Part shown: positions 4,342 through 60,081 of the stretch, piece by piece
Layout of the letters: each line of letters begins with the position of its first letter
How positions within the stretch are numbered: the first letter of the stretch is position 1
From: Desulfosudaceae bacterium
GTDB taxonomy: Bacteria; Desulfobacterota; Desulfobacteria; Desulfobacterales; Desulfosudaceae
Assembly: GCA_963674745.2 (NCBI GenBank)
Contig: CAXXDV010000001.1
Coordinates: 1,184,001-1,248,000 of the forward strand
Direction of reading: 5' to 3'
Length of the DNA: 64,000 bases
Position numbers and translations under genes: made by a program
Notes under the pieces: generated by a model
What the model saw: the letters and a program-made list of their open reading frames with translations, nothing else
Databases searched by the model: none
Told to the model about the DNA's origin: nothing

Positions 4342-4417
4342 GGGGCTGTAGCTCAGCTGGGAGAGCGCATGACTGGCAGTCATGAGGTCAGGGGTTCGAT
4401 CCCCCTCAGCTCCACCA
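4342..4417 (+). tRNA. tRNA-Ala(GGC), probable integration site
   Basis: 76-nt cloverleaf GGGGCTGTAGCTCAG...TCCACCA, anticodon stem CATGA/TCATG with loop CT-GGC-AG, TTCGA T-loop. Confidence 0.97.
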
Positions 4418-4436
4418 AAATTCTACAATGATGAGG

Positions 4437-4472
4437 AAGGGTTAACCGAAACGACGGTTAGCCCTTTTTCTT
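4437..4472 (+). terminator. Intrinsic terminator between the tRNA and the convergent integrase
   Basis: AAGGGTTAACCG-AAACGA-CGGTTAGCCCTT hairpin followed by a T tract. Confidence 0.7.
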
Positions 4473-4475
4473 TGG

Positions 4476-5546
4476 CTAGACTGCTGTGTGTGAATCTGTG
4501 TGTGAATTTTGCCTTGCTCGTTCAAATACGGCTATGGCTGTCCGCTCCATATCACCCATGCTGTGCAGGTAAATTTCGGTTGTCTTGCGGTTCTCATGCC
4601 CCAGAATCCGCTGGATAGCGCCGATAGGAACATCATTGCCATCCATGATAGATGCCCCGGAATGTCGCAAGGCATGGAATCGGAAATAACGGACGCCGGC
4701 CTTTTTACAAAGGCTCTTCATAAACTTCTTTCTATCCTTATAGGGGCCGATACAAAATTCGCCTTTTTTCTTGCTCCAGAACCGATGCCAAAAAACCCAT
4801 GGAATTTCAGAAGAACGCTTGTTAAAACGACTCTGTAAAACATTGTGTAGCTTTTCGGTCATAGGAACCTTTCGCGGAGTCAGGTGCCCACCGCGTTTTT
4901 TTCTCGTATACAGAATGACATATCTTTCAACAAGATTAACATCGTCCCATACAAGCCTGTTAATTTCGCTTACACGGCCCATGGTTTCTCTGATGGCCCA
5001 GAGATAGTCCTGGGTGTCGGGATCGGCAACGGCTATCACCTTATCAATATCTTCACTGGATGGAACATATTTAGCCTTACGTTCAACCGGAAAAAACCTT
5101 ATATCTTCCGTGGGATTGTCACGTATCAGCTTTTGTCCGATCCCAAAATTAAAGACGGCTCGCAAGTACCGTAAATCCTGATTGGCGGTATATGCCGAGA
5201 CTTTATGCCGTTGATAAAGGTGTTTCTGGATCATACTGGCAGTTATTTCGTTGCAAGGTAAATGACCCCAGAGATTGATCCAACGGCGTGCCATATACAC
5301 ATAAGATGTGTAATGGCTATCAGAGTTATATGCCCGTACATGGTCAAGTTTCAGATTCAAAATATCCAAAAAGCCCATGTCTGTTGGCATCTCCGGATAC
5401 GACGGTGGATTGAGTATTGCCTCCTTTCTTTGTTGTTGCGCCTTCATGGCTTCTTTTTTTGTTTTGAACCATGCCTCCGTGTGTCTGGTTCCTTTGTGGA
5501 CGAAGTCGAACCTCCATCCTTTCCCTTTTACCGAATAAATGCTCAT
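4476..5546 (-). CDS. Tyrosine recombinase/integrase
   Basis: TMGRVSEI (R), FHALRH, LGHE, TTEIY catalytic set. N-terminal arm-binding-like domain. GGAAGGAG RBS before MSIYSV. Confidence 0.93.
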   Translation of the reverse strand: MSIYSVKGKGWRFDFVHKGTRHTEAWFKTKKEAMKAQQQRKEAILNPPSYPEMPTDMGFLDILNLKLDHVRAYNSDSHYTSYVYMARRWINLWGHLPCNEITASMIQKHLYQRHKVSAYTANQDLRYLRAVFNFGIGQKLIRDNPTEDIRFFPVERKAKYVPSSEDIDKVIAVADPDTQDYLWAIRETMGRVSEINRLVWDDVNLVERYVILYTRKKRGGHLTPRKVPMTEKLHNVLQSRFNKRSSEIPWVFWHRFWSKKKGEFCIGPYKDRKKFMKSLCKKAGVRYFRFHALRHSGASIMDGNDVPIGAIQRILGHENRKTTEIYLHSMGDMERTAIAVFERARQNSHTDSHTAV

Positions 5547-5670
5547 GAATCTCTCTCCTTCCTGGGAAAAACAGAGACCCACCGAGCTTCCTGGCACCCA
5601 GTTTATCTGCATTTTTGTAAACCCATGACAGGCTTTTTCGCAAATAACGGGCAACCTCCTCGACCGTCAT
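5344..5670 (-). CDS. Excisionase-like HTH protein overlapping the integrase 5' end
   Basis: MTVEEVARYLRKSLSWVYK..KLGGSLFF is an Xis/HTH_17-type pattern. Confidence 0.6.
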   Translation of the reverse strand: MTVEEVARYLRKSLSWVYKNADKLGARKLGGSLFFPGRREIHEHLFGKRERMEVRLRPQRNQTHGGMVQNKKRSHEGATTKKGGNTQSTVVSGDANRHGLFGYFESET

Positions 5671-19636: not shown

Positions 19637-19639
19637 TTA

Positions 19640-22650: not shown

Positions 22651-22681
22651 GTGAAAATAGCGGTTGATTTATTTTTATTGG

Positions 22682-22945
22682 TTATTTCAGAAACGCTCTG
22701 ATCTTTTCTCCCATATCATCTGCTATCGTTTTACATGTAGTTTGTATTTGGGGTTCTAATTCATCCGGATCGTTTCCATATTCTCTATAGAGTCCGGAAG
22801 CCATAAGGCTGGCTATAAAGACCGTAACGGTATTGTAAATCTGCTGTTCATCAGTTCCATCTATACCTATTTTTTTAAATAATTGGCCAAAGGCGTTAAA
22901 CAGTTGATCAAGGTCCATTTCGAAACCGTCAATATCGATTATCAT
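22682..22945 (-). CDS. Hypothetical acidic protein
   Basis: AAGGA RBS; 87 aa. Confidence 0.5.
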   Translation of the reverse strand: MIIDIDGFEMDLDQLFNAFGQLFKKIGIDGTDEQQIYNTVTVFIASLMASGLYREYGNDPDELEPQIQTTCKTIADDMGEKIRAFLK

Positions 22946-23200
22946 AGGAGATTCCTTTGTGGGAGATTATGGTTCAGGTAAATTAAAGTGAATCGGATAA
23001 AACCGGTCTTTCCTTTTTGGTGATCTTTTAGAGCTCAAAAGCCTTATAGTGATAAGCTGATTAAATAAATAAACTTTTTAAATTTCCAATAAAGTTAAGA
23101 TTTCAATCTTAAAAACGTGGGCGGCGGGAGTCGAACCAAACACCTGGGATACTATCTATCTGATTTAACCTTATATTTTGTGATTGTTTAACTGTTCTAT

Positions 23201-24355
23201 TTAAATACGACTAAAGTCCCTTAGTGCTTGACGCCATGGCCTGAGCCAGCGACCATCATTTCGAGGTTCGTCCATAAGTATATCTTCATCCTCAATATCT
23301 TGCCAATTGCGTTCCGCAGAAATTAACCATTCCCTTACCAAGGATAGTCCATCATCAGTAACATCTTGCTCTGTTTTTCCAAACCAACTTAAATATTGAC
23401 GCCAGCTTTTTGCTACCCACGCTTGATCGGGATTTTCATCTAAATGATTCAATACTGCTATTCCTGAACTACTACCAGAATGGTTTCCACCTATAAGATG
23501 TCCGAAGTTATTATTCTGAAGACGGCGAATATCTGCTTCTCTAAGAAATGCTAATAAGTTATGTTCAAACCAGTATGGTAATTGACCGCCACCTCCACCG
23601 GGAGGTTCTTCAAACCGTGATGTTGTAAATCTTCTCAGATTGAAATATTTACTTGTACAACAATTAGTTGCTCCTGCTGCTTTAAACAAAATCATATCCG
23701 ATGATGAATATGCCACTGTAACTGGCGCAGATCGTTCGAGTAAGGAGATTAATAACATTAAATTTAATAACCCGTCAGAATCGGTTATTTCTCTGCGGGG
23801 TTCAATATCAGTATAAACAACGATATAAAACCCATCCGTATCATATCTCGTTAGAATACTAGCGATTTCTCTTACGTGGTCTCCATTTTCTAACTCAGCG
23901 AGTGAAACTAAACAAGTTGTAAAAACATCAATACCAGAAGGAATACGGTTGTCAAAAATATGGCTTACTTCGGTGCAGGTGTCATAAAAATCTAAACTAA
24001 ATCTTCTTGGCATTAATACTGGAGAGATAACTGCATCTATATCCAGTTCTTCTGAAAATTTAGCTAGCTCGTCTATCACTTCATTCCATCCTTCAGGGGT
24101 ACTAAAATCTGCGGTATCAAAAACCTCGGGGAAATATGGCTGAAGGATTAGATTTTCTCGCTCCGCTCTAGGATAGTACAATTGGGGATCAAGTATTATA
24201 TCATAACTTCCTCTCTCTCTAAAAATTGGAATGTCTTCTCGCAGCCTATCAGGGTCCCGGTTTACGGGACTTAAAATAATACCCTCAAACTCTTCAAGGT
24301 CTTCCTCTCCAACTAAATTCTCAGTATTATGCCCCATTTGTAAATATGCGCTCAT
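23201..24355 (-). CDS. Uncharacterised acidic protein, possible TIM-barrel fold
   Basis: LQMGH, GIILSP, LDPQLYYP; alternating beta/alpha pattern; ATGA-coupled to the kinase. Confidence 0.7.
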   Translation of the reverse strand: MSAYLQMGHNTENLVGEEDLEEFEGIILSPVNRDPDRLREDIPIFRERGSYDIILDPQLYYPRAERENLILQPYFPEVFDTADFSTPEGWNEVIDELAKFSEELDIDAVISPVLMPRRFSLDFYDTCTEVSHIFDNRIPSGIDVFTTCLVSLAELENGDHVREIASILTRYDTDGFYIVVYTDIEPRREITDSDGLLNLMLLISLLERSAPVTVAYSSSDMILFKAAGATNCCTSKYFNLRRFTTSRFEEPPGGGGGQLPYWFEHNLLAFLREADIRRLQNNNFGHLIGGNHSGSSSGIAVLNHLDENPDQAWVAKSWRQYLSWFGKTEQDVTDDGLSLVREWLISAERNWQDIEDEDILMDEPRNDGRWLRPWRQALRDFSRI

Positions 24356-25224
24356 TTTGTCAGCTCCTTTTTATTTTCTTCCACTTCCTTAAGGATCTGT
24401 TCTGGGTGAGAAAATCTGTCTACTGGCCAAGCTGAAATCATTTTTGGCAAAAATCCACAACCGCATTCCAAAGCTTTTGTGCAGAATACATCGCAGCAAT
24501 CAGCACGGCCCATAACCTTGTCAACTGCTTGGATAGGAGTTTCTCCGTCCCCTTGATAAGGGTGTTTTCCGATTAGACAAAAACCCAATACAACACCTAT
24601 TGAAAATTGATCGGAACGCCAATCAATTAGTTTTTTTTCATTATTCAATTGTTCCGGCGAAGCATATAAAGGAGTTCCTGGGCCATGATTTAGGTGGGTA
24701 CGTGTTAAGGAAACATCTGTAAGGATTCGCACCAATCCAAAGTCAACAATAACAGGATGTTCGTTTTCAGCTCTAAACATTATGTTTTCAGGTTTGATAT
24801 CACGATGTACAAGTGATTTTTCTTTTAAATGTGAAATTGCTTTTATGAGTGCTGTGCAATAATCACAAATTTGTGCAGGTATGGGATTGGCCTCAAGCAA
24901 CTTATCTGCCAGTGTTCCTCCTGAAAAATACTCCTCTAGTACAAATAAAAAAGTGACATCATCTTCAGTTTTGTGACGTCCCCATCCATATAATTTTCCT
25001 ATAAAATCAGAGTCACACTGCTTCATTGCCTCAATTTCTCTTTCAGCCCTAAATAAATTACATTTATCAGGGTCGAAAATCTTAAGGGCCACAGGAAAGT
25101 TATCTTTTGTTCTAGTCAAATAGGCTTCCTTATATGCGCCATGACCAATATATGACGGTTCTGTAAAAGAATGTTCATCACAAATTCCTTGTGCTATGGC
25201 TTTAAAACGTTCTTCCTCTGGCAT
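24352..25224 (-). CDS. Hanks-type Ser/Thr protein kinase
   Basis: GHGAYK, VALK, HRDIKPEN, DFG, GTPLYASPEQ. Confidence 0.93.
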   Translation of the reverse strand: MPEEERFKAIAQGICDEHSFTEPSYIGHGAYKEAYLTRTKDNFPVALKIFDPDKCNLFRAEREIEAMKQCDSDFIGKLYGWGRHKTEDDVTFLFVLEEYFSGGTLADKLLEANPIPAQICDYCTALIKAISHLKEKSLVHRDIKPENIMFRAENEHPVIVDFGLVRILTDVSLTRTHLNHGPGTPLYASPEQLNNEKKLIDWRSDQFSIGVVLGFCLIGKHPYQGDGETPIQAVDKVMGRADCCDVFCTKALECGCGFLPKMISAWPVDRFSHPEQILKEVEENKKELTK

Positions 25225-25643
25225 TAGCCTTCTCCGTTCATATACTTAACAGCTATTTCTGTAAGCCAAGGACGCAAAGGCTCTGCACATTTAGCCTTTA
25301 TTTCAATATTAATTCCCGATTCATCTACAGAAATCAAACCGATACCGCGCCTGACAAATTCATGTGTCTGTTTAGCAGCTCTTAATGCTGTGGTTGAAGG
25401 GACAACCACATATGAATAATGTGCAAAGCTTGAATTTCTATATGCCTGATACAAAGCTTGTTTCCACTTTTCCAGTTTCATTTCAAAAGCTATCAAATTG
25501 TCATTTTGATCACTTATAATTACATCGGTACGGCCCTCTTTATAGTAAAACTCCTCTGCTATGCATTTGAGGGTAAAGGGTGAACCCTCATCCTCTAATG
25601 CGGTATTGAAAATTTGTGTGAGGTTACGCTCATTTTCAAACAT
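25224..25643 (-). CDS. Small PD-(D/E)xK nuclease-fold protein
   Basis: E..EEF..GRTDV..AFEMKL..WKQALYQA. Likely start MFENER; TAATG overlap with the kinase. Confidence 0.7.
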   Translation of the reverse strand: MFENERNLTQIFNTALEDEGSPFTLKCIAEEFYYKEGRTDVIISDQNDNLIAFEMKLEKWKQALYQAYRNSSFAHYSYVVVPSTTALRAAKQTHEFVRRGIGLISVDESGINIEIKAKCAEPLRPWLTEIAVKYMNGEG

Positions 25644-25795
25644 ATATTCGCCTATAATAATATATCTTATGATTATATATTGTGTTGAGACAAAGCCAAC
25701 ATCATTCAATATTTTTGGGTTATATGCAGCTTTTGCATGCAGCTATCACTCAAATTCCCCTTTGATTTATTCCTTTTTAGTGACTAACAATTTAA

Positions 25796-27129
25796 GGTTC
25801 TTCTCCCAATTAGTGGGAGGAGTTAAGCTGCTAATAAAAAATGGACATCATCAGTTCTTTCTTCTATCCAGAAAGTTGAGAGACAATTCTGGAAGAAAGG
25901 AGACCGATGATGTCCGCTATGAGTATAAAGCCCTATCTCCCTTTTTGTCGAGTCCGTTTTACAAAACAAACGGTTTCTGACGCCGGAGATATGGCGATGA
26001 TAATTGCCGAGCCAGACGAGCGCTATCGCCCTATTTGTTATAGTTGCGGCAGCCCGGCTCAAGGCGTTCATGACCAGGCCAGACGTCCGTTGCGGGATTT
26101 GAACCTTGGGGCCGCAAATGTATGGATCAACTGCAGATATCGTAAAATTTATTGCCCCCGTTGCCAGGGTATTCGGGTTGAAGACCTGGACTTTTTCAAT
26201 CCGTACCAGCGGGTTACCAAAAGACTGGCCCTTTATATCCATGAGTTGTGTAAGATTTTGACGGTCTCTGAAGTGGCCGCGCATTTGGAGCTCAACTGGA
26301 AGACGGTCAAAAATATTGATAAAAACTTTTTGGAAGAATCGTTTGGAAGGACGGACTACAGCGACTTGAGCATACTGGCGGTTGATGAAATCGCCATCCA
26401 TAAAGGCCATACGTATATGACTGTTGTTTTGGACTATCAAACCGGTCGGGTGGTATGGCTTGGCAGGGGCCGATCCGTGGAGACGCTTCAAGTCTTTTTC
26501 GCCGGCATGAGCCAGGAACAGAAACAGGCGCTGGAAGCCATCGCCATGGATATGTGGGATCCTTACATTAAAACGGTTCGAGAGAATGTGCCTCATGTAA
26601 AGATCGTGTTTGATCTTTTTCATGTGGTTCACGCATTTAATAAGGTGATCGACAAAGTTCGAATAGAAGAGTTTAGAAAAGCGACGAAGCCGGACCAGGC
26701 GATATACAAAGGAACCAAGTATTTGCTGCTGTCCAATCCCCAGAATATTCATAGCAGTGAGGCCCGGCAGCATTTGCGGCAGCTTCTTGAAATTAATGAA
26801 ACCATATCTACGGTCATGATTTTGAAAGATTGTCTGAAGCGAATATGGGACTATCAAAAAAGGGGCTGGGCCAAAAAGAGATTGGATGAATGGTGTGCCC
26901 TGGCCAGAACGGTGAGCCACAGGCCCGTACAGAAATTTGCCGACATGCTTGAAAGGCACGCTTACGGCATCCTGAACCATTGCGATTATCCGATTCATAC
27001 CAGTAAAATAGAAGGTGTTAATAATAAAATTAAGGTCATAAAACGAAAATCCTATGGATTTCATGACGATAGATACTTTACATTAAAGGTCATACAGGCC
27101 TTTTCCTCCCACTAATTGGGAGAAGAACC
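25796..27129 (+). mobile_element. Intact ISL3-family insertion sequence (1334 bp)
   Basis: Perfect 26-bp IRs GGTTCTTCTCCCAATTAGTGGGAGGA (25796-25821 and 27104-27129); 8-bp TSD CAATTTAA on both sides. Confidence 0.95.
25907..27115 (+). CDS. ISL3 transposase
   Basis: Zn finger CYSC/CPRC, AVDE, MDMW, FDLFHVV, EGVNNKIKVIKRKSYG. Confidence 0.95.
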   Translation: MMSAMSIKPYLPFCRVRFTKQTVSDAGDMAMIIAEPDERYRPICYSCGSPAQGVHDQARRPLRDLNLGAANVWINCRYRKIYCPRCQGIRVEDLDFFNPYQRVTKRLALYIHELCKILTVSEVAAHLELNWKTVKNIDKNFLEESFGRTDYSDLSILAVDEIAIHKGHTYMTVVLDYQTGRVVWLGRGRSVETLQVFFAGMSQEQKQALEAIAMDMWDPYIKTVRENVPHVKIVFDLFHVVHAFNKVIDKVRIEEFRKATKPDQAIYKGTKYLLLSNPQNIHSSEARQHLRQLLEINETISTVMILKDCLKRIWDYQKRGWAKKRLDEWCALARTVSHRPVQKFADMLERHAYGILNHCDYPIHTSKIEGVNNKIKVIKRKSYGFHDDRYFTLKVIQAFSSH

Positions 27130-36591: not shown

Positions 36592-36792
36592 ATGATAAAG
36601 CCTAAAGAAAAACCAATTGTCAGGCTTAGCGGCCATGACGGTAATGCTTTTGCCATCATGGAGCGTGTAAAACGAGCGTTACAAAGCGCGGGTGCGGACA
36701 AGGAATATATTGACCGGTATATGAAAGAAGCGATGTCCGGTGATTATAACCATCTTTTATTGGTTAGCATGGACTATGTTGCCGTAGAATAA
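36592..36792 (+). CDS. Small hypothetical protein
   Basis: AAGGAG RBS; LSGHDGNAFAIM..SGDYNHLL. Confidence 0.7.
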   Translation: MIKPKEKPIVRLSGHDGNAFAIMERVKRALQSAGADKEYIDRYMKEAMSGDYNHLLLVSMDYVAVE

Positions 36793-36806
36793 AGGAGAAA
36801 ACGAGT

Positions 36807-37076
36807 ATGAATAATGATCGTGTTGAGAACTGGCGCCGTTTCTCTGCGCATATGGAGCAGTACATTCAGGAGCAAACTATCGAGAAATACAAGATGGATG
36901 AGGACAAGGGGATTGACCTTATGAGCATATCGAAGCCTGAAATCTGCGTTTGGAATATTCTTCGATATGCCCTGCGGATGTGGAATGGAAAAAAGAAACC
37001 CCATGATATTGAGAAGGTAGCCCATTACGCTGAGATGTCATGGACGTTACTCGGCGGAGAACAAAAAGATAGCTAA
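36807..37076 (+). CDS. Hypothetical protein
   Basis: AAGGAG RBS; NILRYALR..DIEKVAHYA; a decayed copy lies near 42.3 kb. Confidence 0.7.
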   Translation: MNNDRVENWRRFSAHMEQYIQEQTIEKYKMDEDKGIDLMSISKPEICVWNILRYALRMWNGKKKPHDIEKVAHYAEMSWTLLGGEQKDS

Positions 37077-37097
37077 ATAGTTGATTGTTATCTGCAA

Positions 37098-37135
37098 TAA
37101 AAATACCCCTCAAGTAGGTTGAGGGGTATTTTTTT
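37098..37135. terminator. Bidirectional intrinsic terminator
   Basis: AAAAATACCCCTCAA-GTAGG-TTGAGGGGTATTTTT between convergent operons. Confidence 0.8.
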
Positions 37136-37153
37136 GTATGATTATATTGTTTA

Positions 37154-38044
37154 TTAAAACAATTCTACAGTACGTATAATCGAAGGAGACGACTTATCCA
37201 CTTCTAGTTTATCATTATTTCGTCTGAGAAAATTGTTTGGGGTAGATTCCATTTTTAAAGACTTAAGGGCATCGCATCTTTCTGCGGAAATCGTCTTCAG
37301 CTTTTCCGGGATCAGGTTTATAAAATTTAAAAGGCGGAAAACAGGAATAATATAAGCAAAGCCTCTATTCTCATCTCGCGTTTTTCCGTGGACAATACCG
37401 ACTAGTTGGTCAGGTTCCCCTTCGATAAAAACACCGCTGCCAGAATAGCCCGGTGTTGTTACAGCATCGCTAATCATTAAAACACCAAGATCTTCCATCA
37501 ACCAGAAACCTGATATTATACCTCTGCTCATCGCACCATAAAAGGGCTTGCCAGGCTGGCCAAACATAACGATGGAGGTTCCGACTTTTTGATCATTCGT
37601 AACGGGTTGGGCAATATCAAACCCTCCAATATTAATCATCAACAAGGCAGCGTCATTCTCAGGACTTTCATCAATAATTTGAGCTTCAATATCAGACGAA
37701 GAATCCATGGCCCGGCATGGATTGCTGGACCATGGACGTACATAAATTTTTTGCGCTTTATTAACAAGGTGGCTGCTTGTCAATAAAACCGACTGCCTCT
37801 TGTCGGAGAAAACTGAAACAGCAATTCCTCTTTCCAAAAGTAATTTGCCATTTTCTATTCTTTCAGCATATACAAAAAAGGAATTTGTTCTATGAGGTTC
37901 TCCGGCTTTTCCATCATACATAGATTCATCCATATTAGTTAAGCTATGTGTCGATATGGGGTGGTCTTTGTTTGATGTAATGAGAGAACAAGCTGGTGTG
38001 ACCAAGAGCATAATCAGAAAAACAATTAATGTATAGGGTCTCAT
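37154..38044 (-). CDS. Trypsin-like serine protease, lipoprotein
   Basis: Lipobox-like TPAC; triad TSSH, NDAALL, GYSGSG. Confidence 0.82.
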   Translation of the reverse strand: MRPYTLIVFLIMLLVTPACSLITSNKDHPISTHSLTNMDESMYDGKAGEPHRTNSFFVYAERIENGKLLLERGIAVSVFSDKRQSVLLTSSHLVNKAQKIYVRPWSSNPCRAMDSSSDIEAQIIDESPENDAALLMINIGGFDIAQPVTNDQKVGTSIVMFGQPGKPFYGAMSRGIISGFWLMEDLGVLMISDAVTTPGYSGSGVFIEGEPDQLVGIVHGKTRDENRGFAYIIPVFRLLNFINLIPEKLKTISAERCDALKSLKMESTPNNFLRRNNDKLEVDKSSPSIIRTVELF

Positions 38045-38055
38045 GTTATACCTCG

Positions 38056-38826
38056 TTATTGATTATGTATTGTGATCGTTACGCGGGCAATACGGTAGTT
38101 TACGCCACGACTTTGAACAACGCCTACCTCAAAGAACTTCTGGATATTTCTTACACTTTCATGTGCACTTTTCAGATATGCCATGAGGCCATAGCTTCGT
38201 AATGCTGCGAGTTCCTCATTGCTGATGGTTTGCCCTGGTCTAATCTTAAATTCAGTGGGATATCCGTTCAGTGTTGTCTCGTTTCTGGACATATTCACAA
38301 TGCCCCATTCGCCCCGGTAATAAAGAGGCCGGCGAATTGGTGTTCCGTCAGCCTGCCCGCTGAACGTTGCACGGATAAAATATTTTCTCATGCCTTCCCT
38401 CTCAAGACGATTTGTGACATCGGCAATCGCCTCACCGACAAGATTTGTAAACTGAAGCGCTTCGCGTTTGTTCAGTAATCTTGTAGATTCCGCTGCCAGG
38501 TCATACTCTCCAAGAGGGAACATAACCGTTGGGGATGACCATACCAGGTCGATTTGTGCACCGTTTGATGTAGGCGTACAGGTAATATCAAAATCTGAAT
38601 TGGGATAATTTTTTGAATAGTATGGATTTTGACGGTAATTCAATTTGATTTGACGGGTTGTGCCTTCACCAATCAGGTATGCTCGGTTCTGGTACGAAGC
38701 GCCTCTATAATATCTCAGTGGGGAGCCATTTTGGGGATTGGTATTTGCAAGCATAAATTCATTTAATGAACTGCACCCGCTTAAGTAACAAGCCATTAAC
38801 AACATAATGATTATTTTATGTTTCAT
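38056..38826 (-). CDS. Lipoprotein with OmpA-like C-terminal domain
   Basis: LSGC lipobox; GQADG..NEELAALRS..YRIARVTI resembles the OmpA_C motifs. Confidence 0.6.
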   Translation of the reverse strand: MKHKIIIMLLMACYLSGCSSLNEFMLANTNPQNGSPLRYYRGASYQNRAYLIGEGTTRQIKLNYRQNPYYSKNYPNSDFDITCTPTSNGAQIDLVWSSPTVMFPLGEYDLAAESTRLLNKREALQFTNLVGEAIADVTNRLEREGMRKYFIRATFSGQADGTPIRRPLYYRGEWGIVNMSRNETTLNGYPTEFKIRPGQTISNEELAALRSYGLMAYLKSAHESVRNIQKFFEVGVVQSRGVNYRIARVTITIHNQ

Positions 38827-38854
38827 AATTCTTTCCTCCCGATTTTAATGATTT

Positions 38855-39277
38855 TTATTTAATACCCTGGATTCTTCCAGAATTTTGAGAATAATTATTC
38901 ATGCTATTGATTTGACAATGAGGTGCGATTGCTGTCATTGCGCCGATTCCAGCACCCAGGTGAATGATTCTGCCTTTATTGATTATTCTGTTGTTTCGAT
39001 AAAAAATTCGTCCACCATTCACAGAAGGTCGGATGTCAAGCATGCACGTCGGGTTCCTCGGTCCGGATGTAAGGATTTTGTCAAAGTTAACAATTGTATT
39101 TCCAAACACTATTGTGATGCCGTCGGCGCCTTGCACCCTAACCGGTTGTGTCAAAGTTTCTCCAACTAAACGTTCAACTTCGAGTGTTTTTTGTTCCTCT
39201 GCATACAGGTGACCAGGATTAAACAAATGAGAACTAGATATCACCAGCAACAATGCCCAGAATTTCATCATCTTCAT
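38855..39277 (-). CDS. Secreted Asn/Gly-rich protein
   Basis: Signal peptide ending LYA-E; NKGRI and NSGRI motifs. Confidence 0.6.
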   Translation of the reverse strand: MKMMKFWALLLVISSSHLFNPGHLYAEEQKTLEVERLVGETLTQPVRVQGADGITIVFGNTIVNFDKILTSGPRNPTCMLDIRPSVNGGRIFYRNNRIINKGRIIHLGAGIGAMTAIAPHCQINSMNNYSQNSGRIQGIK

Positions 39278-40397
39278 AATTGCGAACCTCCACTTCTAAA
39301 ATTTTACAATTTTTTTCCAATATATCTTTTGTTATGCAAAGCTGACCTCCCCCCATCAACAGGGATCCTTTAATTACATCCTGAAGAACCGGATCTATTG
39401 GGATGTTTGGGCATAATACTGATGAAAATTGCCTTATTGAAATTTTGTAGAAGTCATTTTTCTTTATGACGCAATTTGCGGATTTTACTCCTAAGCAAAT
39501 TTGAACGTCCTCATTAGTTAACATCAAGTTCAATGGCAATTCACCAGATTTGGTTTTGGCCTGTATGGGAATTTTGGAATTATCGCGGCCTGGAATCTCG
39601 GGGTCACACATTGCGAAGGTCTTATTTAAAAGCGCCGAGGATAAATCTCTAACAGTTGCCGCAACCAGAAAATCGCTTAAGTATTGTATGGCGGCGGTGG
39701 TATTCGCTGCCAAGCTGAAAGCATACTGGCCATTTATCAAGTTGTTACCGGTCAGATGAAAAATACTGGCTCCGGTAGCAGTTGTATACAGGCGGACGGT
39801 TAATGACGTCGTTAGCACAGTTCTTCTGGTATTGGCATCAACAACTTGGACAGATGCTGCAATATTATATGCTTTAACCTCAGCGTTTAGACCCAAAATA
39901 TAATCAACTTCCGCAATGGCTGCTTTGACATTAGTGCAACCATATATAAAGGGCACAATGACAAAATCCGGTCTGACAATATCACCCAAAACTACGTCAT
40001 GAAGGATATTTTCCTGGGTAAAACCAATATTTGGCAACGCCTGCGTTAACCCCTGTATCCCAGTTAAATTTTCGGAGTCATATAGCTCATAGCCAGCGTT
40101 AATTCTGGCGAAAGAATTTTCTACAAAGGGTTTAAGCATTGATGGGAGACAAATTCCCTCAGGATCATTTATAAGTTTGTTAGTTACAGAGGCAACAGTT
40201 ATCTTTTTTGAAAAATTTTGTTCACGCGAAAGTTGACCTGAAAGACAATCCAGCCACCCCGTAGCCGGGCTGAACGCCCCGTAAATTTCGGGATGTATGG
40301 CGGTTGGGACGGCTTTCTCTGGAATCGTTTTGATAATACTACACCCCAAGCATTGGCTAATTATCACCGCCAATATCATTAAATGTTTTTTCGCCAT
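39234..40397 (-). CDS. CsgG/HfaB-like outer-membrane lipoprotein
   Basis: CLGC lipobox; ITVASVTN, PDFVI, IAASVQVVDANTRRTVLTTS..GASIFHL..AAIQYL follow the CsgG/HfaB layout. GGAGGTG RBS before MAKK. Confidence 0.62.
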   Translation of the reverse strand: MAKKHLMILAVIISQCLGCSIIKTIPEKAVPTAIHPEIYGAFSPATGWLDCLSGQLSREQNFSKKITVASVTNKLINDPEGICLPSMLKPFVENSFARINAGYELYDSENLTGIQGLTQALPNIGFTQENILHDVVLGDIVRPDFVIVPFIYGCTNVKAAIAEVDYILGLNAEVKAYNIAASVQVVDANTRRTVLTTSLTVRLYTTATGASIFHLTGNNLINGQYAFSLAANTTAAIQYLSDFLVAATVRDLSSALLNKTFAMCDPEIPGRDNSKIPIQAKTKSGELPLNLMLTNEDVQICLGVKSANCVIKKNDFYKISIRQFSSVLCPNIPIDPVLQDVIKGSLLMGGGQLCITKDILEKNCKILEVEVRNYEDDEILGIVAGDI

Positions 40398-40466
40398 ATT
40401 CACCTCCACCTTATAGGAGAGGTGTGTGCATGGCCCTTATCAACCATACACACACCGTTTTAGTAG

Positions 40467-40778
40467 TTAATAAGCCTCTTGAGCGACGACTTGGCTTGAG
40501 GCCCCTCCGACGGTTTTCTGCGAGCCCTTAATTTCACCGGAATTTTTATAAACATTTCCGGAGCTTCTATAACTCAGCACCGCATCGAGTTGCGGGGATC
40601 GAGCCCGCTGGGCAACCACCTGATTTGCCGCACCTCCCATGGTGATCTGGTCTGCCAGGATTTTCCCGGTATTCTCAAACCGGTCGTTCTGGGTGTTTAT
40701 TTCGGCTTTATACCCAAAGGCCGTCGCGTTCGTTGTGGTGATCAGAAAAATTGCCAATACCATTAATATATTTTTCAT
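40467..40778 (-). CDS. Small secreted two-repeat protein, candidate amyloid/fibre subunit
   Basis: Signal peptide ending ATA; repeats FENTGKILADQITMGGAANQVVAQRA and YKNSGEIKGSQKTVGGASSQVVAQEA; GGAGGA RBS. Confidence 0.65.
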   Translation of the reverse strand: MKNILMVLAIFLITTTNATAFGYKAEINTQNDRFENTGKILADQITMGGAANQVVAQRARSPQLDAVLSYRSSGNVYKNSGEIKGSQKTVGGASSQVVAQEAY

Positions 40779-42223: not shown

Positions 42224-42572
42224 CAAGGAATATATTGACCGGTATATCAAGGAAGCTATGGCGGGAGATTACAACCGTCTTTTAACGGTCAGGGCATGGA
42301 ATATGCCGCCGTGCAATAAAATCGAAAAATACAAGATGGATGAAAAAAAGGAGTTTGACTTTATAAGTATATATCGCCCAGAAATCTGCGTGTGGAATAT
42401 TCTGCAGTGCGCCTTGCGCATGTGGAATCGGAAAATAGAACCTCATGATGTTGAGTAGATAGCGCATTACGCGGAGATGGCATTCACCCAGAGTGGCGGC
42501 TCAAAAATTACTGAATAGCCTTGAGGGTTACACATAATAAAAAGGCTCTTGATTTCGTTGGGGAGTATTTTT
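42224..42572 (+). pseudogene. Decayed direct copy of the 36699-37135 segment
   Basis: CAAGGAATATATTGACCGGTATAT is identical in both; PEICVWNIL..ALRMWN is retained; internal deletion and premature stop. Confidence 0.8.
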
Positions 42573-48006: not shown

Positions 48007-50022
48007 ATGGTTAAAAACAGTAACGATAATTCTTTGAAATGTGATGAATATTTAAGGTTAAGTTTAAATTTGCAAAAAGGCAGGAATGAATGTGTTAAAA
48101 TTTTAAATAAAAGCCTAAACACCGAAGAATCAGACACTAAAAAGCTAACAAGTGAAGAATTTTCACATGTTCTTTCTAAAATAATAAAGACAGCGGGTTT
48201 ATATTTAAACAGTTTTTTAAATGACTTATGGCGTGACTCGATTTCAGTAGAGAAACGAATAATGTTTGTATGGCCAGGATACTATACTTATTCTCCATAT
48301 GGAGGTGAACGGGCGGATACAGTAGGCCATGAAAACATAATAGAAATTATTGATAATGAAGAACCGTTAACACCAAGCAAAATTGCTAAACTGAAAGCAA
48401 TAATCAGTAATGCAGTAACGCATCACGGGTACGGAACATATGGGGAAAAAGATGAAAAGTTAACCTTGTTCCCACTAGTTATTTGGTTCTACTTATTTTA
48501 CGCTAAGGAGATAAATAACAATGAAATATACGGTTTTACAAAATGGTTTGAAAAAATTGGGACGTTATATGTTGGAAACGGAAAGGATATAGTTCCACTA
48601 ATCGCAATTGAAGCAACAACGGCTAAAAAAAACGGTTTAGATAAACCACAAATACATAACGGTGTACTGACAATTTATGTGCCTGAACAAAAAAAGAATA
48701 ACCCAGAAAATCTCCTAAAATGTTTTTCCGATTCGCTTAAGGAAGTCGAGTTTTATGACTATTCTAATAATGAACCCCTTAAAATTCCTGTTGAGCAAAT
48801 ACCCGAATACCCGCCAGTTGCTATTACTCAGAAAGAAAATGAGGAGGATATCAGACAAGCATTAAGGATATCATTCTCTTTGCTTTTTCATTCAATTTTC
48901 TTTGGATACAACAATGATGAAGAGTTCCCTCTAAATATGTCGAATTTAGCTAATGATGACACTATAGATGTAATTATTAATCGAATCAATAAAGCTTTAT
49001 ATATATTAAAAAGCTTTAAGCAAGATAACGATTTTAAAAATGCTTCCTTTTCACATTACTATGTTTTTCAAATTAATACTGGTTTTAAAATTAAAAGGAG
49101 TTCTATTGAAATAAATGATTTTCTTGGAACCATGAATTTATACTCTTCTCATGAAATAGAACCAGTTTATCTAAATATGATAAAAAAATTTTTAGATTCG
49201 ATATATGATCAGGTTCGTTTGATTGATGTAACACGGGAAATTGAGGAAGAGTCTTATAATGAAGCAATGGTTGCTGATTATAGAATGAGAGCTCATGAGC
49301 CGATGAAATTCTGTAATTTAATTGATAAGGAAACTCCCTATCAAATTTTAAATAGAATTAGACTTTATTTCCAAACATTTTTCTCAATAGGTCCAAACGA
49401 AATTGAAAATCTTGAAGAAATTCAAAGTATGCTGCCAGATAATTATGCTTCTGGTAACAATTTTCGAGAATATGTTAGGAATGCTATAAAAATATCCTTC
49501 TATTTATTTAGATCAAAAAGTTACATAGAAGATGGGAAAATGGATAAAACGTATGATGATCAATGTGATATTATTCAACACTCTGACAATATCATTGATC
49601 GAATTTATAATGATAGTAAATTACCTAAAACATCATTTAATAAACAAATGAAAAACGAAAATTACTATTTTTTCTCTGCATTAATTGTAATTTTTAACAA
49701 TATATATAAGCACACTACAATGATTTGGGATTTAAATGATATTATAATACCGAAATTAGAGGAAAAAGATGGTAGGAAATATATTGTAATTACAAATTAT
49801 TCATTGCCAGCCGACCCTAACGAAGAAAAAATACAGAGAAAACTTGATAAGAATAAACATAAAGGGACATCCCTATCTGTTCTGACCAATATTCGGAAAT
49901 ATACTTCTAACATTCCAAATAATTTTCGTGTTATCAAACTAAAAAGCCGTGTGGACGGGACAAAGATATGGTTATTTGAGACTAGAGCTCTTTTGCCCGA
50001 TAATTTTTTGGAGATAAAATGA
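48007..50022 (+). CDS. Hypothetical protein, possibly a degenerate histidine kinase
   Basis: RAHE (H-box-like), IFNNIYKH (N-box-like), KGTSL; weak match. Confidence 0.4.
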   Translation: MVKNSNDNSLKCDEYLRLSLNLQKGRNECVKILNKSLNTEESDTKKLTSEEFSHVLSKIIKTAGLYLNSFLNDLWRDSISVEKRIMFVWPGYYTYSPYGGERADTVGHENIIEIIDNEEPLTPSKIAKLKAIISNAVTHHGYGTYGEKDEKLTLFPLVIWFYLFYAKEINNNEIYGFTKWFEKIGTLYVGNGKDIVPLIAIEATTAKKNGLDKPQIHNGVLTIYVPEQKKNNPENLLKCFSDSLKEVEFYDYSNNEPLKIPVEQIPEYPPVAITQKENEEDIRQALRISFSLLFHSIFFGYNNDEEFPLNMSNLANDDTIDVIINRINKALYILKSFKQDNDFKNASFSHYYVFQINTGFKIKRSSIEINDFLGTMNLYSSHEIEPVYLNMIKKFLDSIYDQVRLIDVTREIEEESYNEAMVADYRMRAHEPMKFCNLIDKETPYQILNRIRLYFQTFFSIGPNEIENLEEIQSMLPDNYASGNNFREYVRNAIKISFYLFRSKSYIEDGKMDKTYDDQCDIIQHSDNIIDRIYNDSKLPKTSFNKQMKNENYYFFSALIVIFNNIYKHTTMIWDLNDIIIPKLEEKDGRKYIVITNYSLPADPNEEKIQRKLDKNKHKGTSLSVLTNIRKYTSNIPNNFRVIKLKSRVDGTKIWLFETRALLPDNFLEIK

Positions 50023-51500
50023 ACATTAAAATCTACTATATTGAAGATGATGAAAATAAATATAACTGTCTTGACCTTCTTTTACAAAAATTGAACTCGG
50101 ATGATGAACTTAAAGCGGCGCATATTGAAGTTGAAGATGGCTTTAAAAAAAATCAAAAGGCCTATAGGGATGTTTCTGCGCTTTGTGATGCTTTGTTGTC
50201 CGATCCAAATGGTCTAGTTCTCCTAGATTTAATGCTTTTAGATGATAAAGTTCAGCCTCCTTTATTACAAAGAGAAATACCGATAAACTTGCGAAAAAAG
50301 TTTTATGAAATGTTTGATTTGGAAATAGATCGTACAAATAGCCCAATTTCTAGCCAAGAGCTGTTACAAAAGATAAACAAATTATACAATGATGTTGATG
50401 GATTACGCGGGTTCGTTGATGTTGATTTCCTTGAGGATTTAAGATCTCAACTGTCAGATAATAATTTTGATGAGGAAAGCAGGAAAGTAGAGGATATATT
50501 ACAAATAGAAAAATATTCTAATATGATCAAAGAGAAGTATAGCATTAATGATAACTTATCCCCACTTATTTTATCTATGAGTAACTATTGTAAAAAAGAT
50601 GTATTTCTCTGTTCCACAGCATTGCAGCAAATATCATTAGTTATGGGTGAGGATGAACAGTTTTTTGCTAAGGCGGCTTTATTGTGGCCCAAAAAATGTA
50701 ATGGACATTTAAATGGTACAGATTCAAGTTTGATGGATTTATCCTTTAAGCAAATTAAAAGCTACATAATTAATAAATTTGATGATCTACACTGGTTCTT
50801 AAATCCCCCTCAGAAAAAAAATGAGTCAACTTTTGTAACCTGGTTTCAAAACAAAATTGCTCATACCAAAGGTCATATCCTTTTTGAGAAGCACTTAGCA
50901 ACAGTTAAGGATAAATTACCTTCTTGCAATGTTAATGATGCAAAAGCAATTTTACTAGGCACAAAGATAATTTCCGATACGACTAAGAGAATCACTGCAA
51001 AGTGTTTTACTGATTTCTTCCCGGGTTTGGAATTTAAGGGAATAAAGGAAATTGATGAATTCAACTTGCCAATTAGGCCCGCCTATGGATTTCTTGTTTC
51101 AATAAAACTATTTTTGTTTGCTTTGGACAATAACATTAACAATAAATATCAGTTAAGACATGTCTTAATTAGTAAAAACGAATCTTCGAATGGCAAAGAG
51201 ACAGAATTGATTGTCATTGGTGTGGAATCAAAATACTCTAAATATAATCTGCTAAGAAAGTTTTGCATTGACCTACATTCAAATTCTAATTTAGAAGAAT
51301 CTGACGGAGAAGCTGCAATTCTATTAAAGAATGCCTTATTTGCAGAGATATATCCAAAAACAAATAATCAACCAATTAGTCCGCAGGAGCATCTGTCTAA
51401 AATATTAGAGGGATGCGACGAAATGATTGCTTACCCATATTTAACTGATAATTTTATTGGGATTGCCTGGGCACCAGATAATATTTGGAAAAATACATGA
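50019..51500 (+). CDS. Protein with N-terminal receiver-like domain
   Basis: IYYIEDD..VLLDLML; ATGA-coupled. Confidence 0.55.
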   Translation: MNIKIYYIEDDENKYNCLDLLLQKLNSDDELKAAHIEVEDGFKKNQKAYRDVSALCDALLSDPNGLVLLDLMLLDDKVQPPLLQREIPINLRKKFYEMFDLEIDRTNSPISSQELLQKINKLYNDVDGLRGFVDVDFLEDLRSQLSDNNFDEESRKVEDILQIEKYSNMIKEKYSINDNLSPLILSMSNYCKKDVFLCSTALQQISLVMGEDEQFFAKAALLWPKKCNGHLNGTDSSLMDLSFKQIKSYIINKFDDLHWFLNPPQKKNESTFVTWFQNKIAHTKGHILFEKHLATVKDKLPSCNVNDAKAILLGTKIISDTTKRITAKCFTDFFPGLEFKGIKEIDEFNLPIRPAYGFLVSIKLFLFALDNNINNKYQLRHVLISKNESSNGKETELIVIGVESKYSKYNLLRKFCIDLHSNSNLEESDGEAAILLKNALFAEIYPKTNNQPISPQEHLSKILEGCDEMIAYPYLTDNFIGIAWAPDNIWKNT

Positions 51501-52450
51501 TACCGATACTATTTTATAATCACGACCCTGAAGTTCTACCCATTGAGAGTATTTTGAGTGAACTTGAAAGCCAGAAGAAAATTAAAGTAATTAGTTTTAG
51601 GGATCAAACTCAAAAGCAATATCAAAAGGCCATGGAATGCTTTAAAGTATACCAATACGCAATTTTTCATGGCCCAACCGAATTGTGGGTTGGTGACAAA
51701 CCATTGGATGAAGACATTTGGTGGTATTATAAATTACAAGACTCGACCTTTGAGACATCTAATAATTTAATTGTATTTTTTATCAGCTCTGATTTTTTGA
51801 ACTGGGAGAAGAAAAGAATAAATTTTGGTGAGAATTCCTCTCGATATCTGATCCCGGTACCTCGAACAAAAGAGAGTGGGTTAGTTGGGCCAGGATCAGA
51901 TGCTAATTGGGCCTTAATCTTTAGTGCTATTAGTGACATCAATATTGTTGAAGCATATTTTAACAATGACTCTTCCCATAAGGGTGTCAATGTTTTAAAA
52001 CGATTCTTTGATGCACCTAAACCGAATGTTATTATTGCAGCAATAACTATTATTTGCCAAATATATCTATCTACTCATTCACCGGACAGAAAAGGCAACT
52101 CCAGAATATCAGATATTCTATTTGAGATAGGTTGGTGGAACTTTTGCGAACAACAAAGTTCTTCCAGGTTAGTTGATTTGTTTAAAAGCCATAGAGCAAT
52201 ACTCGAATCATCAGGTTGGTATACCCCTTTAAAAGACAATCTTTCAAAAGAAGAATTACTTAATGAACTTTATACTGAAATAGATAATATGCAATGTAAC
52301 GTAAACGAAAAACTCGATATTGAAAACGTTAAAGATAATTTAGACACTTTTTTGACGGATATTTACAACGAGAAGCCACTTAATCAACCTAGCCATCTCG
52401 AACTTGTAGCAGATATATATATTGATTTGAAACAGTTAATGCAACAATGA
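51497..52450 (+). CDS. Hypothetical protein
   Basis: ATGA overlap with the upstream stop supports start MIPILF. Confidence 0.65.
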   Translation: MIPILFYNHDPEVLPIESILSELESQKKIKVISFRDQTQKQYQKAMECFKVYQYAIFHGPTELWVGDKPLDEDIWWYYKLQDSTFETSNNLIVFFISSDFLNWEKKRINFGENSSRYLIPVPRTKESGLVGPGSDANWALIFSAISDINIVEAYFNNDSSHKGVNVLKRFFDAPKPNVIIAAITIICQIYLSTHSPDRKGNSRISDILFEIGWWNFCEQQSSSRLVDLFKSHRAILESSGWYTPLKDNLSKEELLNELYTEIDNMQCNVNEKLDIENVKDNLDTFLTDIYNEKPLNQPSHLELVADIYIDLKQLMQQ

Positions 52451-52494
52451 TCTGTTTTAGAAGTTGGAAATAATTTGAAGAAAAAGGTATTGTA

Positions 52495-53025
52495 ATGAGG
52501 AATTGGCAAAACCAAAGAGTAAATTTTAATCATGACTGGTTTGTAAATAAATATTTGAATGGCTTAGATGGTTTTCTTACACGACTTAACCAGATTAGTA
52601 CAGATTCAAAAATAAATGGCCGTTTGATAGGATTTCTTGACGAGCAGTTTCATGAATGGGAAGGCAATAGGAGTAAGGCAAAATGGATTATTGATAATTT
52701 TGAAACTGAAATGTCTCCAAAAGTACTTATGGAATCATACCCTTTAATCCATTGGGATAAACAAAATCGAGAATTGATGGGAGACCTAGTTCACGTGTTA
52801 TGGAAAGGCAGAAACCCGATCACTAAATGGATTAAAGATTGCGAAGAAAGTTATGATAAAGTCGAACATATTTATAATAAAATTAACAATCAACTAACAA
52901 TGACAACACCTATAAAAACGACTGAGTTGATTTCTATGAAACAATTATTTAGAGAATATAGAGATACATGTGAATTGTTTTCGTGTAAGTTAAGTCAACT
53001 TCCAGGTGAAATATTATTTGTATGA
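52495..53025 (+). CDS. Hypothetical alpha-helical protein
   Basis: 176 aa with N-terminal FNHDW; ATGA-coupled to the next gene. Confidence 0.65.
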   Translation: MRNWQNQRVNFNHDWFVNKYLNGLDGFLTRLNQISTDSKINGRLIGFLDEQFHEWEGNRSKAKWIIDNFETEMSPKVLMESYPLIHWDKQNRELMGDLVHVLWKGRNPITKWIKDCEESYDKVEHIYNKINNQLTMTTPIKTTELISMKQLFREYRDTCELFSCKLSQLPGEILFV

Positions 53026-54794
53026 ACAAACTTCCCAAAATTTTAATCATAGATGACGACTATGGGCATAATAGAGGTGGCCGTAATGTCGACCGCGATG
53101 ATTTCTGTGTTTCCAGAGCGATAAAAGATGTTACAGGAGACATAACCCCCGAAGACATACAAAATCCCATTGTGGAGGCCGTTTTTTACAGCGGTCAGAT
53201 TAATGATGCTGGTTTTATTAAAAATGATATCAGTGGCACTCTCGATGCGATTAAAATGGGATGGAGACAATGGCCTCGTTGGGCTCTAATTCTTTTGGAT
53301 CTCCGATTTGTAACCGGAAAATTAAATGGTAAAGGAATACCTGTCGGCAATCAAAATGATGATGATCCCAAATATTATTTTGGGCTAGAGATTCTATCAA
53401 TGATCGCAAACGACCCGCTGTTGCATGATATCCCCATTATTATTCTATCTTCAATGGCAAGACAAACCGTTGAAAAACAATTTTCAGAATTAGGTGTAAG
53501 AGATTTTATTGATAAAAAAGATCTTACTTCTAAAAAGTTGAAACTTTTTTTAGCTACTTATGGTCTGCTAGAAGATGATGACATCATTGGATGTTCAGTC
53601 CCTTTATTAAAATGCCTTAGAACAGCAAGACGACGAGCTCAATATGGGAATGATAATATACTTATTCTCGGTGAGACAGGTACAGGAAAAGAGTTGTTGG
53701 CAAAGTACATTCACAAACAATCCCCGTATTGCCAAAATCGTTTTGTAAAGCTTAATACTCAAGGTGTGCCGGATACATTGATTGAAGATAAGCTTTTTGG
53801 GCATAAAAAGGGCGCTTATAATGGAGCAAATTCAGAACAGCCTGGCGCTGCTGAACTTGCAAATAATAGTACTCTCTTTATTGATGAATTTGGGGATATC
53901 CCTGCAAATATTCAGTCCAAACTTTTAGATTTGATTGATAAAAATATCAGAACCGTCCAGCGCCTTGGAAGTAATGACAGCAAAAAACTTGAGCTACAGA
54001 TTGTTATGGCCACTAATCGGATGGACATAATGACATCGGATAATTTCCGAAAAGACATACTTTACCGAGCTAAGATTACCGATCCCATAATTCTTCCTCC
54101 GTTACGTGAGAGGAGGGAAGACATTCCGCTTTTAGCAGAATTTTTTTTAAGAAAATACGAAAATGAAACCCATGAAGCGGAACACAGGGACATAGATAAA
54201 GAAGCTTTACATCTCCTGATGGACCATGATTGGCCTGATAATATTCGTGGTCTTGAACAGGTTATTGAGCTGGCAGTCAGCAAATATAAAGGGCTAAAGA
54301 TTTTATCAAAAAATCATATCAGCCTGGCAGCTGATTCAAAAGCTGAAACCACTTCCAAACCCGTGATATCACAAAAACTGAAGAGAGATATCAGATCAGA
54401 AGATATAACTCTTTCGATAAATGAACTTATTGCATGTATAAACAATTTCGAGTTTGACGACGATAATTCAATACAATGGCAATGGAAAGGCAATGATTTG
54501 AGGGAGGCTTTTTTTCATTTAATGGAGCGTTATCTTCGCGCGGGCCTTGAGGCTACTCGAAAAATCAATTTTGAAGACCCAAAGGGAAAAATCCAGCATA
54601 CACCGGCAATAAACTTAATTTTAGGGCCCAAAAAAGGAAAGACCGGAAAAAAAGCGGAATATAATCCGACCGAAGCATATGCTGAGATAAAAAGGCTGCT
54701 GATGTTAAAATCCAAAGAAGTTGAAAATCTGATATCGGATCCGGTTGTCAAAGAGATTTTTGAAAAAGCAAAAAAGAATCGATCTGCGAAATGA
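53022..54794 (+). CDS. Receiver + sigma54-activator-like AAA+ protein
   Basis: IIDDD, LLDL; GETGTGKE, LFGHKKGAYNGA, FIDE, LPPLRERREDIP, WPDNIRGL. Confidence 0.85.
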   Translation: MNKLPKILIIDDDYGHNRGGRNVDRDDFCVSRAIKDVTGDITPEDIQNPIVEAVFYSGQINDAGFIKNDISGTLDAIKMGWRQWPRWALILLDLRFVTGKLNGKGIPVGNQNDDDPKYYFGLEILSMIANDPLLHDIPIIILSSMARQTVEKQFSELGVRDFIDKKDLTSKKLKLFLATYGLLEDDDIIGCSVPLLKCLRTARRRAQYGNDNILILGETGTGKELLAKYIHKQSPYCQNRFVKLNTQGVPDTLIEDKLFGHKKGAYNGANSEQPGAAELANNSTLFIDEFGDIPANIQSKLLDLIDKNIRTVQRLGSNDSKKLELQIVMATNRMDIMTSDNFRKDILYRAKITDPIILPPLRERREDIPLLAEFFLRKYENETHEAEHRDIDKEALHLLMDHDWPDNIRGLEQVIELAVSKYKGLKILSKNHISLAADSKAETTSKPVISQKLKRDIRSEDITLSINELIACINNFEFDDDNSIQWQWKGNDLREAFFHLMERYLRAGLEATRKINFEDPKGKIQHTPAINLILGPKKGKTGKKAEYNPTEAYAEIKRLLMLKSKEVENLISDPVVKEIFEKAKKNRSAK

Positions 54795-60066: not shown

Positions 60067-60081
60067 TAATGGAGGTAACAC

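Follow-up and report, generated by a model that had tools for sequence, protein, structure and literature searches.

This study concerns a putative fibre secretion operon in a 64,000-nucleotide (nt) stretch of DNA from a Desulfosudaceae bacterium, here called the window; coordinates are counted from its first letter. It was found that five closely spaced open reading frames (ORFs) lie on the minus strand, in the order of 103, 387, 140, 256, and 296 amino acids (aa). The first gene (40467..40778) encodes a putative major subunit with a signal peptide and two 43-residue repeats. Directly 3' of this gene, the messenger RNA would form a 15-bp stem-loop without a U tract (40421..40456, minus strand). 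The second gene (39234..40397) encodes a CsgG-fold lipoprotein of 387 aa, in which a CsgG-like domain (residues about 46 to 257) is followed by a linker and a C-terminal FN3/Ig-like beta-sandwich (about 287 to 387). An alternative in-frame GTG at 40409 would lengthen this protein by 4 aa. The third gene (38855..39277) encodes a second small secreted protein of 140 aa, which has three [ND]-x-phi-x-N-x-G-x-I-type motifs. The fourth gene (38056..38826) encodes a 256-aa lipoprotein of unproven fold, and the fifth (37154..38044) encodes a trypsin-fold serine protease lipoprotein of 296 aa. A terminator-like hairpin (37095..37136, minus strand, z -6.57), flanked on both sides by A/U tracts, ends the gene run between the operon and a convergent island gene.

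An original prediction made from the DNA letters had described five co-directional genes, all with signal peptides or lipoboxes. The ORFs were borne out, and all five proteins carry predicted export signals. The lipobox cysteine is C19 in the CsgG-like protein (23 of 25 family rows), C18 in the 256-aa protein (5/5), and C19 in the protease (5/5), while the signal peptides of both small proteins were assigned by eye, without a predictor. Only the 296-aa protein has a Pfam family. For the other four proteins, no meaningful family was found in Pfam, NCBIfam, or PHROGs.

The channel, the small proteins, and their partners

The 387-aa lipoprotein was not matched by the curated CsgG models PF03783 and NF011731 at E<=1, and a single-sequence search of the PDB gave one match only (E 0.61). 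A two-sequence profile run against 1.84 billion representatives found 31 proteins at E<=0.001. These include one 40-aa fragment and one HfaB-type protein, the latter being the weakest member (E 2.2e-5); 1 of the 31 matches the HfaB model NF037935, and 3 match Pfam CsgG. The family profile was rebuilt minus P0037, P0029, and P0036, which are presumed to be the Pfam-CsgG/HfaB-type members, and it still matches solved CsgG (E 7e-7). In a fold search with the AlphaFold2 model (31-row alignment, predicted local distance difference test (pLDDT) 82.2), the top Foldseek rows are all CsgG (best E 4.5e-11). VIA-align placed residues 62-257 on CsgG with Z 13.8 and a root-mean-square deviation (rmsd) of 5.7 over 181 aligned residues. 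The next rows have Z values of 10.5, 10.1, and 9.5, including the FlgT ring (10.1) and PelC (9.5), and TraT has 8.0. The nearest neighbours in the ESM Atlas are CsgG clusters (0.94, 201 of 256 features), mostly phage CsgG proteins. Thus, the CsgG fold proposed for this lipoprotein was upheld.

The protein has the fold of the CsgG/HfaB superfamily, a TolB-N-like alpha/beta lipoprotein in which each protomer has two long beta-hairpins. In the alignment, the hairpin regions are 41-42 and 48-51 residues long in the channel family, as against 43 and 49 residues in CsgG. This length and the alternation of polar and apolar residues are compatible with an oligomeric outer-membrane beta-barrel pore. 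In contrast, the constriction-loop region is about 6 residues shorter: 10 of the 12 displayed family rows have 30 residues there, and two CsgG proteins have 36-37. The C-terminal domain is another difference, since CsgG has no such FN3/Ig-like domain; residues 287-387 resemble FN3/Ig-like sandwiches with Z 7.2-8.8 and rmsd of about 2.5-3.8. In a tree of 37 rows, built from about the first 290 residues and excluding the 40-aa fragment, the 30 family rows are separated from all others by a branch with 100/100 support. Because the outgroup comprises just 7 rows and the search itself set the bounds of the family, this tree gives distinctness, not origin. HfaB-like rows fall outside the family branch, as do the host's two Pfam-positive CsgG-family genes, whose neighbours are dissimilar. 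A CsgG-family lipoprotein of the host (L012, genome C2:72746-76273) lies beside a second lipoprotein and a protein that by eye has a caspase-like C-terminal domain; this locus is unrelated to the operon.

The 103-aa protein consists mostly of two imperfect repeats, as had been noticed before. Its internal repeat at offset 43 scores 72, whereas the best of 500 shuffles scores 38, and 7/7 subunit homologs repeat at offset 42-43 (p<=0.002). The repeat pattern is about x-Y-x3-I-x-S-x-N-[ND]-x-[FY]-x-N-x-G-x-I-x-[AG]-x-Q-x-T-x2-G-x-A-x-Q-x-V-[AG]-x-[RE]. Invariant in the repeats are N36/N79, G38/G81, Q44/Q87, G49/G92, and Q53/Q96. QX8Q occurs twice in each of the seven subunits, and the Ala at the presumed signal cleavage site is also invariant (7/7). 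Four copies of residues 21-103 were modelled together and gave a stacking score of 0.84, while the best of 3 controls gave 0.10. In a calibration that is only rough here, 20 of 30 solved pairs attain the mark used for this score, as does 1 of 23 single chains. The four-copy model has a pLDDT of 86, and its runs share at least 97% of contacts. In the modelled interface, residues 65-103 lie on residues 22-61, so that repeat 2 of one copy lies on repeat 1 of the next; the contact pairs at offset 43 are 83/40, 79/36, 97/54, 98/55, 76/33, and 88/45. Residue i+43 on residue i is, in this model, the geometry of a continuous solenoid fibre with open ends. In-register stacking of imperfect N/Q/G repeats, which is a criterion for functional amyloids, is thus predicted, and the modelled stack supports polymerisation of the subunit.

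The hairpin between the subunit and channel genes was found in 4/4 full loci, always without a U tract and with differing sequences. Its z value is -6.15 in the window and -2.45, -5.21, and -1.49 in the other three, the last not being significant (3/4 significant). It lies directly behind the subunit gene and probably lifts the level of the subunit mRNA above that of the machinery genes' mRNA.

The 140-aa protein contains NKGRI and NSGRI, which belong to the NxGxI type as originally reported. Its three motifs are spaced by 32-36 residues, and its C-terminus is itself a motif. An internal repeat of this protein by itself was rejected (p 0.18), while the repeat is significant in 2 of 4 homologs. 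The family profiles of the 140-aa and 103-aa proteins match across 24 columns (probability 64%, E 6.5e-5), in agreement with the earlier claim of a common motif; a strand ending in N-x-G-x-I is common to both families. At the level of repeats, the two families score 24.6, whereas shuffles reach 11.5 at most; this test is partly circular because the segments were anchored on the motif. Both homologs of Desulfobacter latus are strongly basic, with 16-17 K+R and 2-6 D+E. By analogy to CsgB, the 140-aa protein is a putative minor subunit, nucleator, or cap.

The 256-aa protein had been called an OmpA-like lipoprotein. In its family, G157, D160, N203, LALR210, and R245 are invariant (D160 and R210 in 5/5), which recalls GHtD and N..LS.rRA of the OmpA consensus. 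The motifs G-x-x-D, N-x2-L-A-x-L-R, and R-x-A-x-V-x-I are ordered as in the OmpA-like domain (PF00691), in which an Asp and an Arg bind peptidoglycan, but the first two are set about 40 residues further apart. Pfam gave no match for 5/5 homologs, and a PDB profile search gave nothing below E 0.1; two weak matches of the family profile in the locus searches (E 1e-4 and 8e-4) looked spurious when inspected. When the family was aligned by hhalign with 5 and then 31 OmpA domains, as a whole and as two segments, it never scored above column-shuffled controls (segment scores of 10.8 and 13.1 against shuffled maxima of 15.0 and 18.0). In the Atlas, unnamed clusters come first (0.91), and an OmpA row appears at rank 19 (0.85). 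The OmpA-like label is therefore putative and has the motifs in its favour. A relative in Ca. Methylumidiphilus (L023 7650-8627) looks membrane-anchored and is followed by an ATPase-like ORF. The unnamed Atlas clusters comprise similar proteins from Thermodesulfobacteriota and Bacteroidota.

The 296-aa protein matches the trypsin-like serine protease model PF13365 (Trypsin_2, E 8.2e-10, above the cut-off) and no other Pfam domain. The triad H92/D131/S201 is invariant, like the lipobox cysteine, in 5/5 homologs. Thus, the trypsin protease of the original prediction is present, with its catalytic triad intact. Two precedents suggest differing roles for such an enzyme. The activity of the periplasmic protease FapD is needed for FapC secretion (PMC5557850), while Prc degrades CsgA in the periplasm (10.1101/2024.12.25.630354).

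Distribution of the operon and comparison with curli, Hfa, and Fap

Is this set of genes found elsewhere? The flanking DNA of the channel gene was covered for 6 loci, as compared with 7 subunit sequences and about 30 channel clusters. The five genes occur together in 4/6 loci: the window, a metagenome contig (L002), and two copies in D. latus (L008 and L009). L002 and L009 keep the gene order of the window, while the 140-aa homolog has moved to the front in L008. The subunit gene lies directly upstream of the channel gene in 4/4 full loci. The homologs are about 28-45% identical to the window proteins; those of the 140-aa protein in D. latus were assigned by position and alignment, and tblastn missed the one within the locus searched. 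In three cases, the longest contigs with homologs of different operon genes are of equal size (4613, 18435, and 21892 nt), which suggests linkage. The co-occurrence of the five genes in other genomes therefore holds for three further loci, while L003 and L004 have only the channel and the protease. These two loci, like the FN3/Ig-like domain, the shorter constriction loop, and the hairpin after the subunit gene, were no part of the original prediction. The operon is rare, being found in 0 of 40 relatives and in a single genome among 400 others from the order; a search of 400 genomes of the phylum added only a canonical-type csgG. D. latus belongs, like the host, to the Desulfobacterales. A first scan of genome contigs found nothing. 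No match was found in viral contigs, nor to the subunit in phages or to the channel in plasmids.

The operon resembles curli, or type VIII secretion, in having a CsgG-fold lipoprotein channel, a small Sec-exported N/Q/G-rich imperfect-repeat subunit with a related second small protein, and predicted head-to-tail beta-solenoid stacking. It differs in the repeat, which is about 23 aa with QX10Q in curli and 42-43 residues with QX8Q in the 103-aa subunit, and in the added serine protease and second lipoprotein. The curlin motif (QX10Q, N-x-phi-x-phi-x-Q; as defined in PMC10192328) occurs in none of 11 small proteins and 6-10 times in the control CsgA and CsgB. The minimal curli pattern QxGxxN (taken from PMC3521004) is also absent from all 11, in a scan without a positive control. 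The curlin family PF07012 has no match in the host genome (the Escherichia coli control was positive), and CsgE and CsgF have no Pfam or NCBIfam match among the five genes. No significant match came from comparing profiles of the small proteins with CsgA/B, CsgE, CsgF, or the small proteins encoded next to two plasmid HfaB-like genes. With no curlin repeat and no CsgE or CsgF match, membership in curli was rejected. The plasmid HfaB-like genes just mentioned, of Loktanella and Variovorax (L013 4543-8826; L015 4436-10855), are flanked by other small N/Q/G-rich secreted proteins and represent non-canonical CsgG modules.

The Hfa anchor (HfaA, HfaB, HfaD, and HfaE) combines a CsgG-family lipoprotein with non-curlin polymer-forming partners, as is proposed here. 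The models of HfaA (NF037934) and HfaD (NF037936) have no match among the 11 small proteins or anywhere in the host genome; the Caulobacter control was positive. The window channel does not match the HfaB model either, and it lies outside the HfaB-like branch; membership in Hfa was rejected for want of a match to any of the three models. Fap (FapA-F) likewise has few long repeats (three in FapC, two in the 103-aa subunit), a major and a minor subunit, and an exported protease in the operon. In contrast to the operon, its channel is the 12-stranded FapF barrel and its protease, FapD, is a C39 cysteine protease. The minimal Fap repeat GX4NX3GX6N (from PMC3792158) is absent from all 11 small proteins, in a scan without a positive control. 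Since the repeat is absent, the channel has a CsgG fold, and the protease belongs to Trypsin_2, membership in Fap was rejected. The original prediction placed the combination outside csg, hfa, and fap. This stands for the subunits, which match none of the three in motif and model tests, while the OmpA-like part of the combination was not confirmed. In sum, the operon would work like type VIII secretion yet fails the tests on subunits that define curli, Hfa, and Fap.

A candidate fibre secretion system and its alternatives

The operon probably encodes an apparatus devoted to the secretion and assembly of a beta-solenoid fibre on the cell surface; this system would be curli-like (type VIII-like) and have its own subunit. 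From the computed fold, repeats, linkage, and triad, I infer the following course of events. Sec would export both small proteins unfolded into the periplasm. The CsgG-like lipoprotein would make a ring-shaped outer-membrane beta-barrel pore, whose fused FN3/Ig domain would hang in the periplasm, perhaps replacing CsgE. The 103-aa protein would cross the pore and polymerise head-to-tail, repeat 2 on repeat 1, via Asn and Gln ladders, and the resulting fibre may be amyloid. The 140-aa protein, with one repeat strand in common, would nucleate or cap the fibre. As for the accessory proteins, the 256-aa lipoprotein would fix the machine in place, perhaps to peptidoglycan, at about even odds, and the protease might clear mis-sorted subunit or make an export-required cut as FapD does.

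Several points weigh against such a system. CsgG-like folds are also found in the rings of FlgT, PelC, and TraT, which are not known to export a fibre subunit. About 30 channel clusters are known, and the subunit sequences and neighbourhoods number only 7 and 6. In L003 and L004, which are near-identical and of one lineage, the channel gene is directly followed by the protease gene without the two middle genes, and no subunit was found in the 642 nt to the contig end of L003. A relative of the 256-aa protein (24% identical) stands alone in Ca. Methylumidiphilus without a subunit match. The AlphaFold2 monomer of the subunit is a poor model (pLDDT 48.8, 7-row alignment), having the same three strands in both repeats, and a fold search with it found nothing at Z>=2, which is uninformative at this confidence. 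Curli subunits, too, have low model scores, and it has been speculated that these mirror a disordered state prior to assembly (PMC10192328). Moreover, the stacking score expresses how confident the model is in its own result, and beta-solenoids may reach the mark through resemblance to solved ones.

The small proteins might instead form short SDS (sodium dodecyl sulfate)-resistant polymers that stay on the channel after export, tying a matrix component to the envelope in the manner of Hfa. HfaB is itself a CsgG-like lipoprotein, and its partners HfaA and HfaD form SDS-resistant polymers (10.1101/2022.07.20.500906). The HfaB-type protein at the lower end of the family search and the share of lipoproteins (3/5 proteins), which fits a cell-bound structure, point in the same direction. 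On the other hand, apart from the lack of HfaA and HfaD matches, no polysaccharide (holdfast) genes were seen among the ORFs beside the four full loci, which were partly scanned and judged by eye. The hairpin suggests an excess of subunit and the modelled stack is open-ended, and such an anchor is rather unlikely.

It is distinctly unlikely that the operon serves a mobile element or the defence of the cell as an envelope module, for surface exclusion or the masking of phage receptors, with the CsgG-fold ring as a scaffold like TraT, PelC, or FlgT that is coated by the small proteins. CsgG scores clearly above these three rings, to which the channel does show some resemblance, and both hairpins are of CsgG length. 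The loci are mobile or lie amid defence and conflict genes: an integrase, type I restriction, and ThiF-JAB in the window, a relaxase and STAND ATPases in L002, TPR-CHAT near both D. latus copies, and, by eye, CRISPR-type (clustered regularly interspaced short palindromic repeat) genes by L003. Such island neighbours vary between the loci, as is expected of cargo. The phage CsgG proteins prominent among the Atlas clusters would suit this explanation, against which stand the negative searches of viral contigs, phages, and plasmids. Finally, the channel and the protease are the sole pair present in 6/6 loci and are adjacent in L003 and L004. They might form a protease-centred core, with the small proteins as substrates, inhibitors, or precursors of released peptides. 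This is highly improbable, given that the subunit consists wholly of repeats, whose invariant N, G, and Q are in register, and is predicted to self-stack, and that L003 and L004 are fragmentary contigs from a single lineage.

If the operon does encode a fibre secretion system, it could represent a bacterial amyloid pathway separate from curli and Fap, although I consider this extension a little less probable than its opposite. It would combine a 43-residue cross-beta repeat of new architecture, a CsgG ring with FN3 domains plus a serine protease controlling entry, and a cassette moving between anaerobes on integrative elements. Among literature titles and the beginnings of abstracts, no published account of the operon was found; supplementary tables of CsgG surveys could list its proteins. 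A 2025 review of curli and Fap operons in GTDB (PMC12822426) names no such system in the part that was available. Of 601 Pfam CsgG matches, 171 lie in curli operons, and most CsgG-model proteins lie outside curli (PMC3521004). I found no account of what non-curli CsgG proteins export. The locus offers a concrete candidate for a non-curlin cargo with predicted stacking and thus a direct test of whether CsgG rings export unrelated amyloids generally. For biomaterials, it would provide a new self-assembling repeat. Its channel would be a naturally occurring form of CsgG in which the constriction loop is shortened and an extra domain is fused; CsgG is in use for nanopore sequencing. The operon would also point to a candidate fibre in the matrix of sulfate reducers, one of which, D. 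latus, is in culture and carries two copies. The rarity of the operon limits this significance.

The integrative element and neighbouring genes

The operon had been described as island cargo, and this was corroborated. Past window position 4000, the G+C content falls from about 0.53 to 0.28-0.48. A tRNA-Ala(GGC) gene (4342-4417) followed by a tyrosine integrase gene marks the left end of the element (4342..5654). The 3' end of the tRNA recurs about 70 kb off, outside the window (genome C1:1257971-1258096, 94% over 126 nt). An integrative element roughly 70 kb long, located at tRNA-Ala(GGC), carries the operon as cargo. The 3' end of the tRNA occurs once more, in a shorter copy, 3 kb further (C1:1261032-1261079), which hints at a tandem or older insertion. 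Two 80%-identical backbone copies (36699-37041 and 42224-42483) flank the operon and an IS66 remnant upstream of it, like a cargo slot. Each copy consists of the end of a 66-aa ORF and an 89-aa ORF without a Pfam family.

At the other loci, the D. latus copies lie directly downstream of TPR-CHAT protease genes or within 4 kb of them (L008 1-2070; L009 1-892 and 1497-6730). L009 also has a 692-aa ORF between TPR-CHAT and the operon, whose C-terminal part recurs at 910-1221. The channel and protease genes of L003 (2650-9761) and L004 (1500-2489) adjoin, by eye, CRISPR-like repeats, a reverse-transcriptase-Cas1-like ORF, and type III-like genes.

Elsewhere in the window, a defence-like cluster at 12872-25709 contains a fused JAB-ThiF gene and its small neighbour, genes of a type I restriction-modification system, and what appears to be a kinase gene beside two neighbours of no known family (the kinase and the methylase were assigned by eye). 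A transposase-like ORF lies between perfect 26-bp inverted repeats at 25796-27129. At 48007-57370, a low-GC run of large ORFs surrounds a sigma-54 activator, and several of these ORFs start receiver-like by eye. A VWA-domain membrane protein followed by a Tubulin_2 protein is encoded at 57910-62895, in a run that continues past the window end; I take this pair to resemble tubulin-VWA conflict systems.

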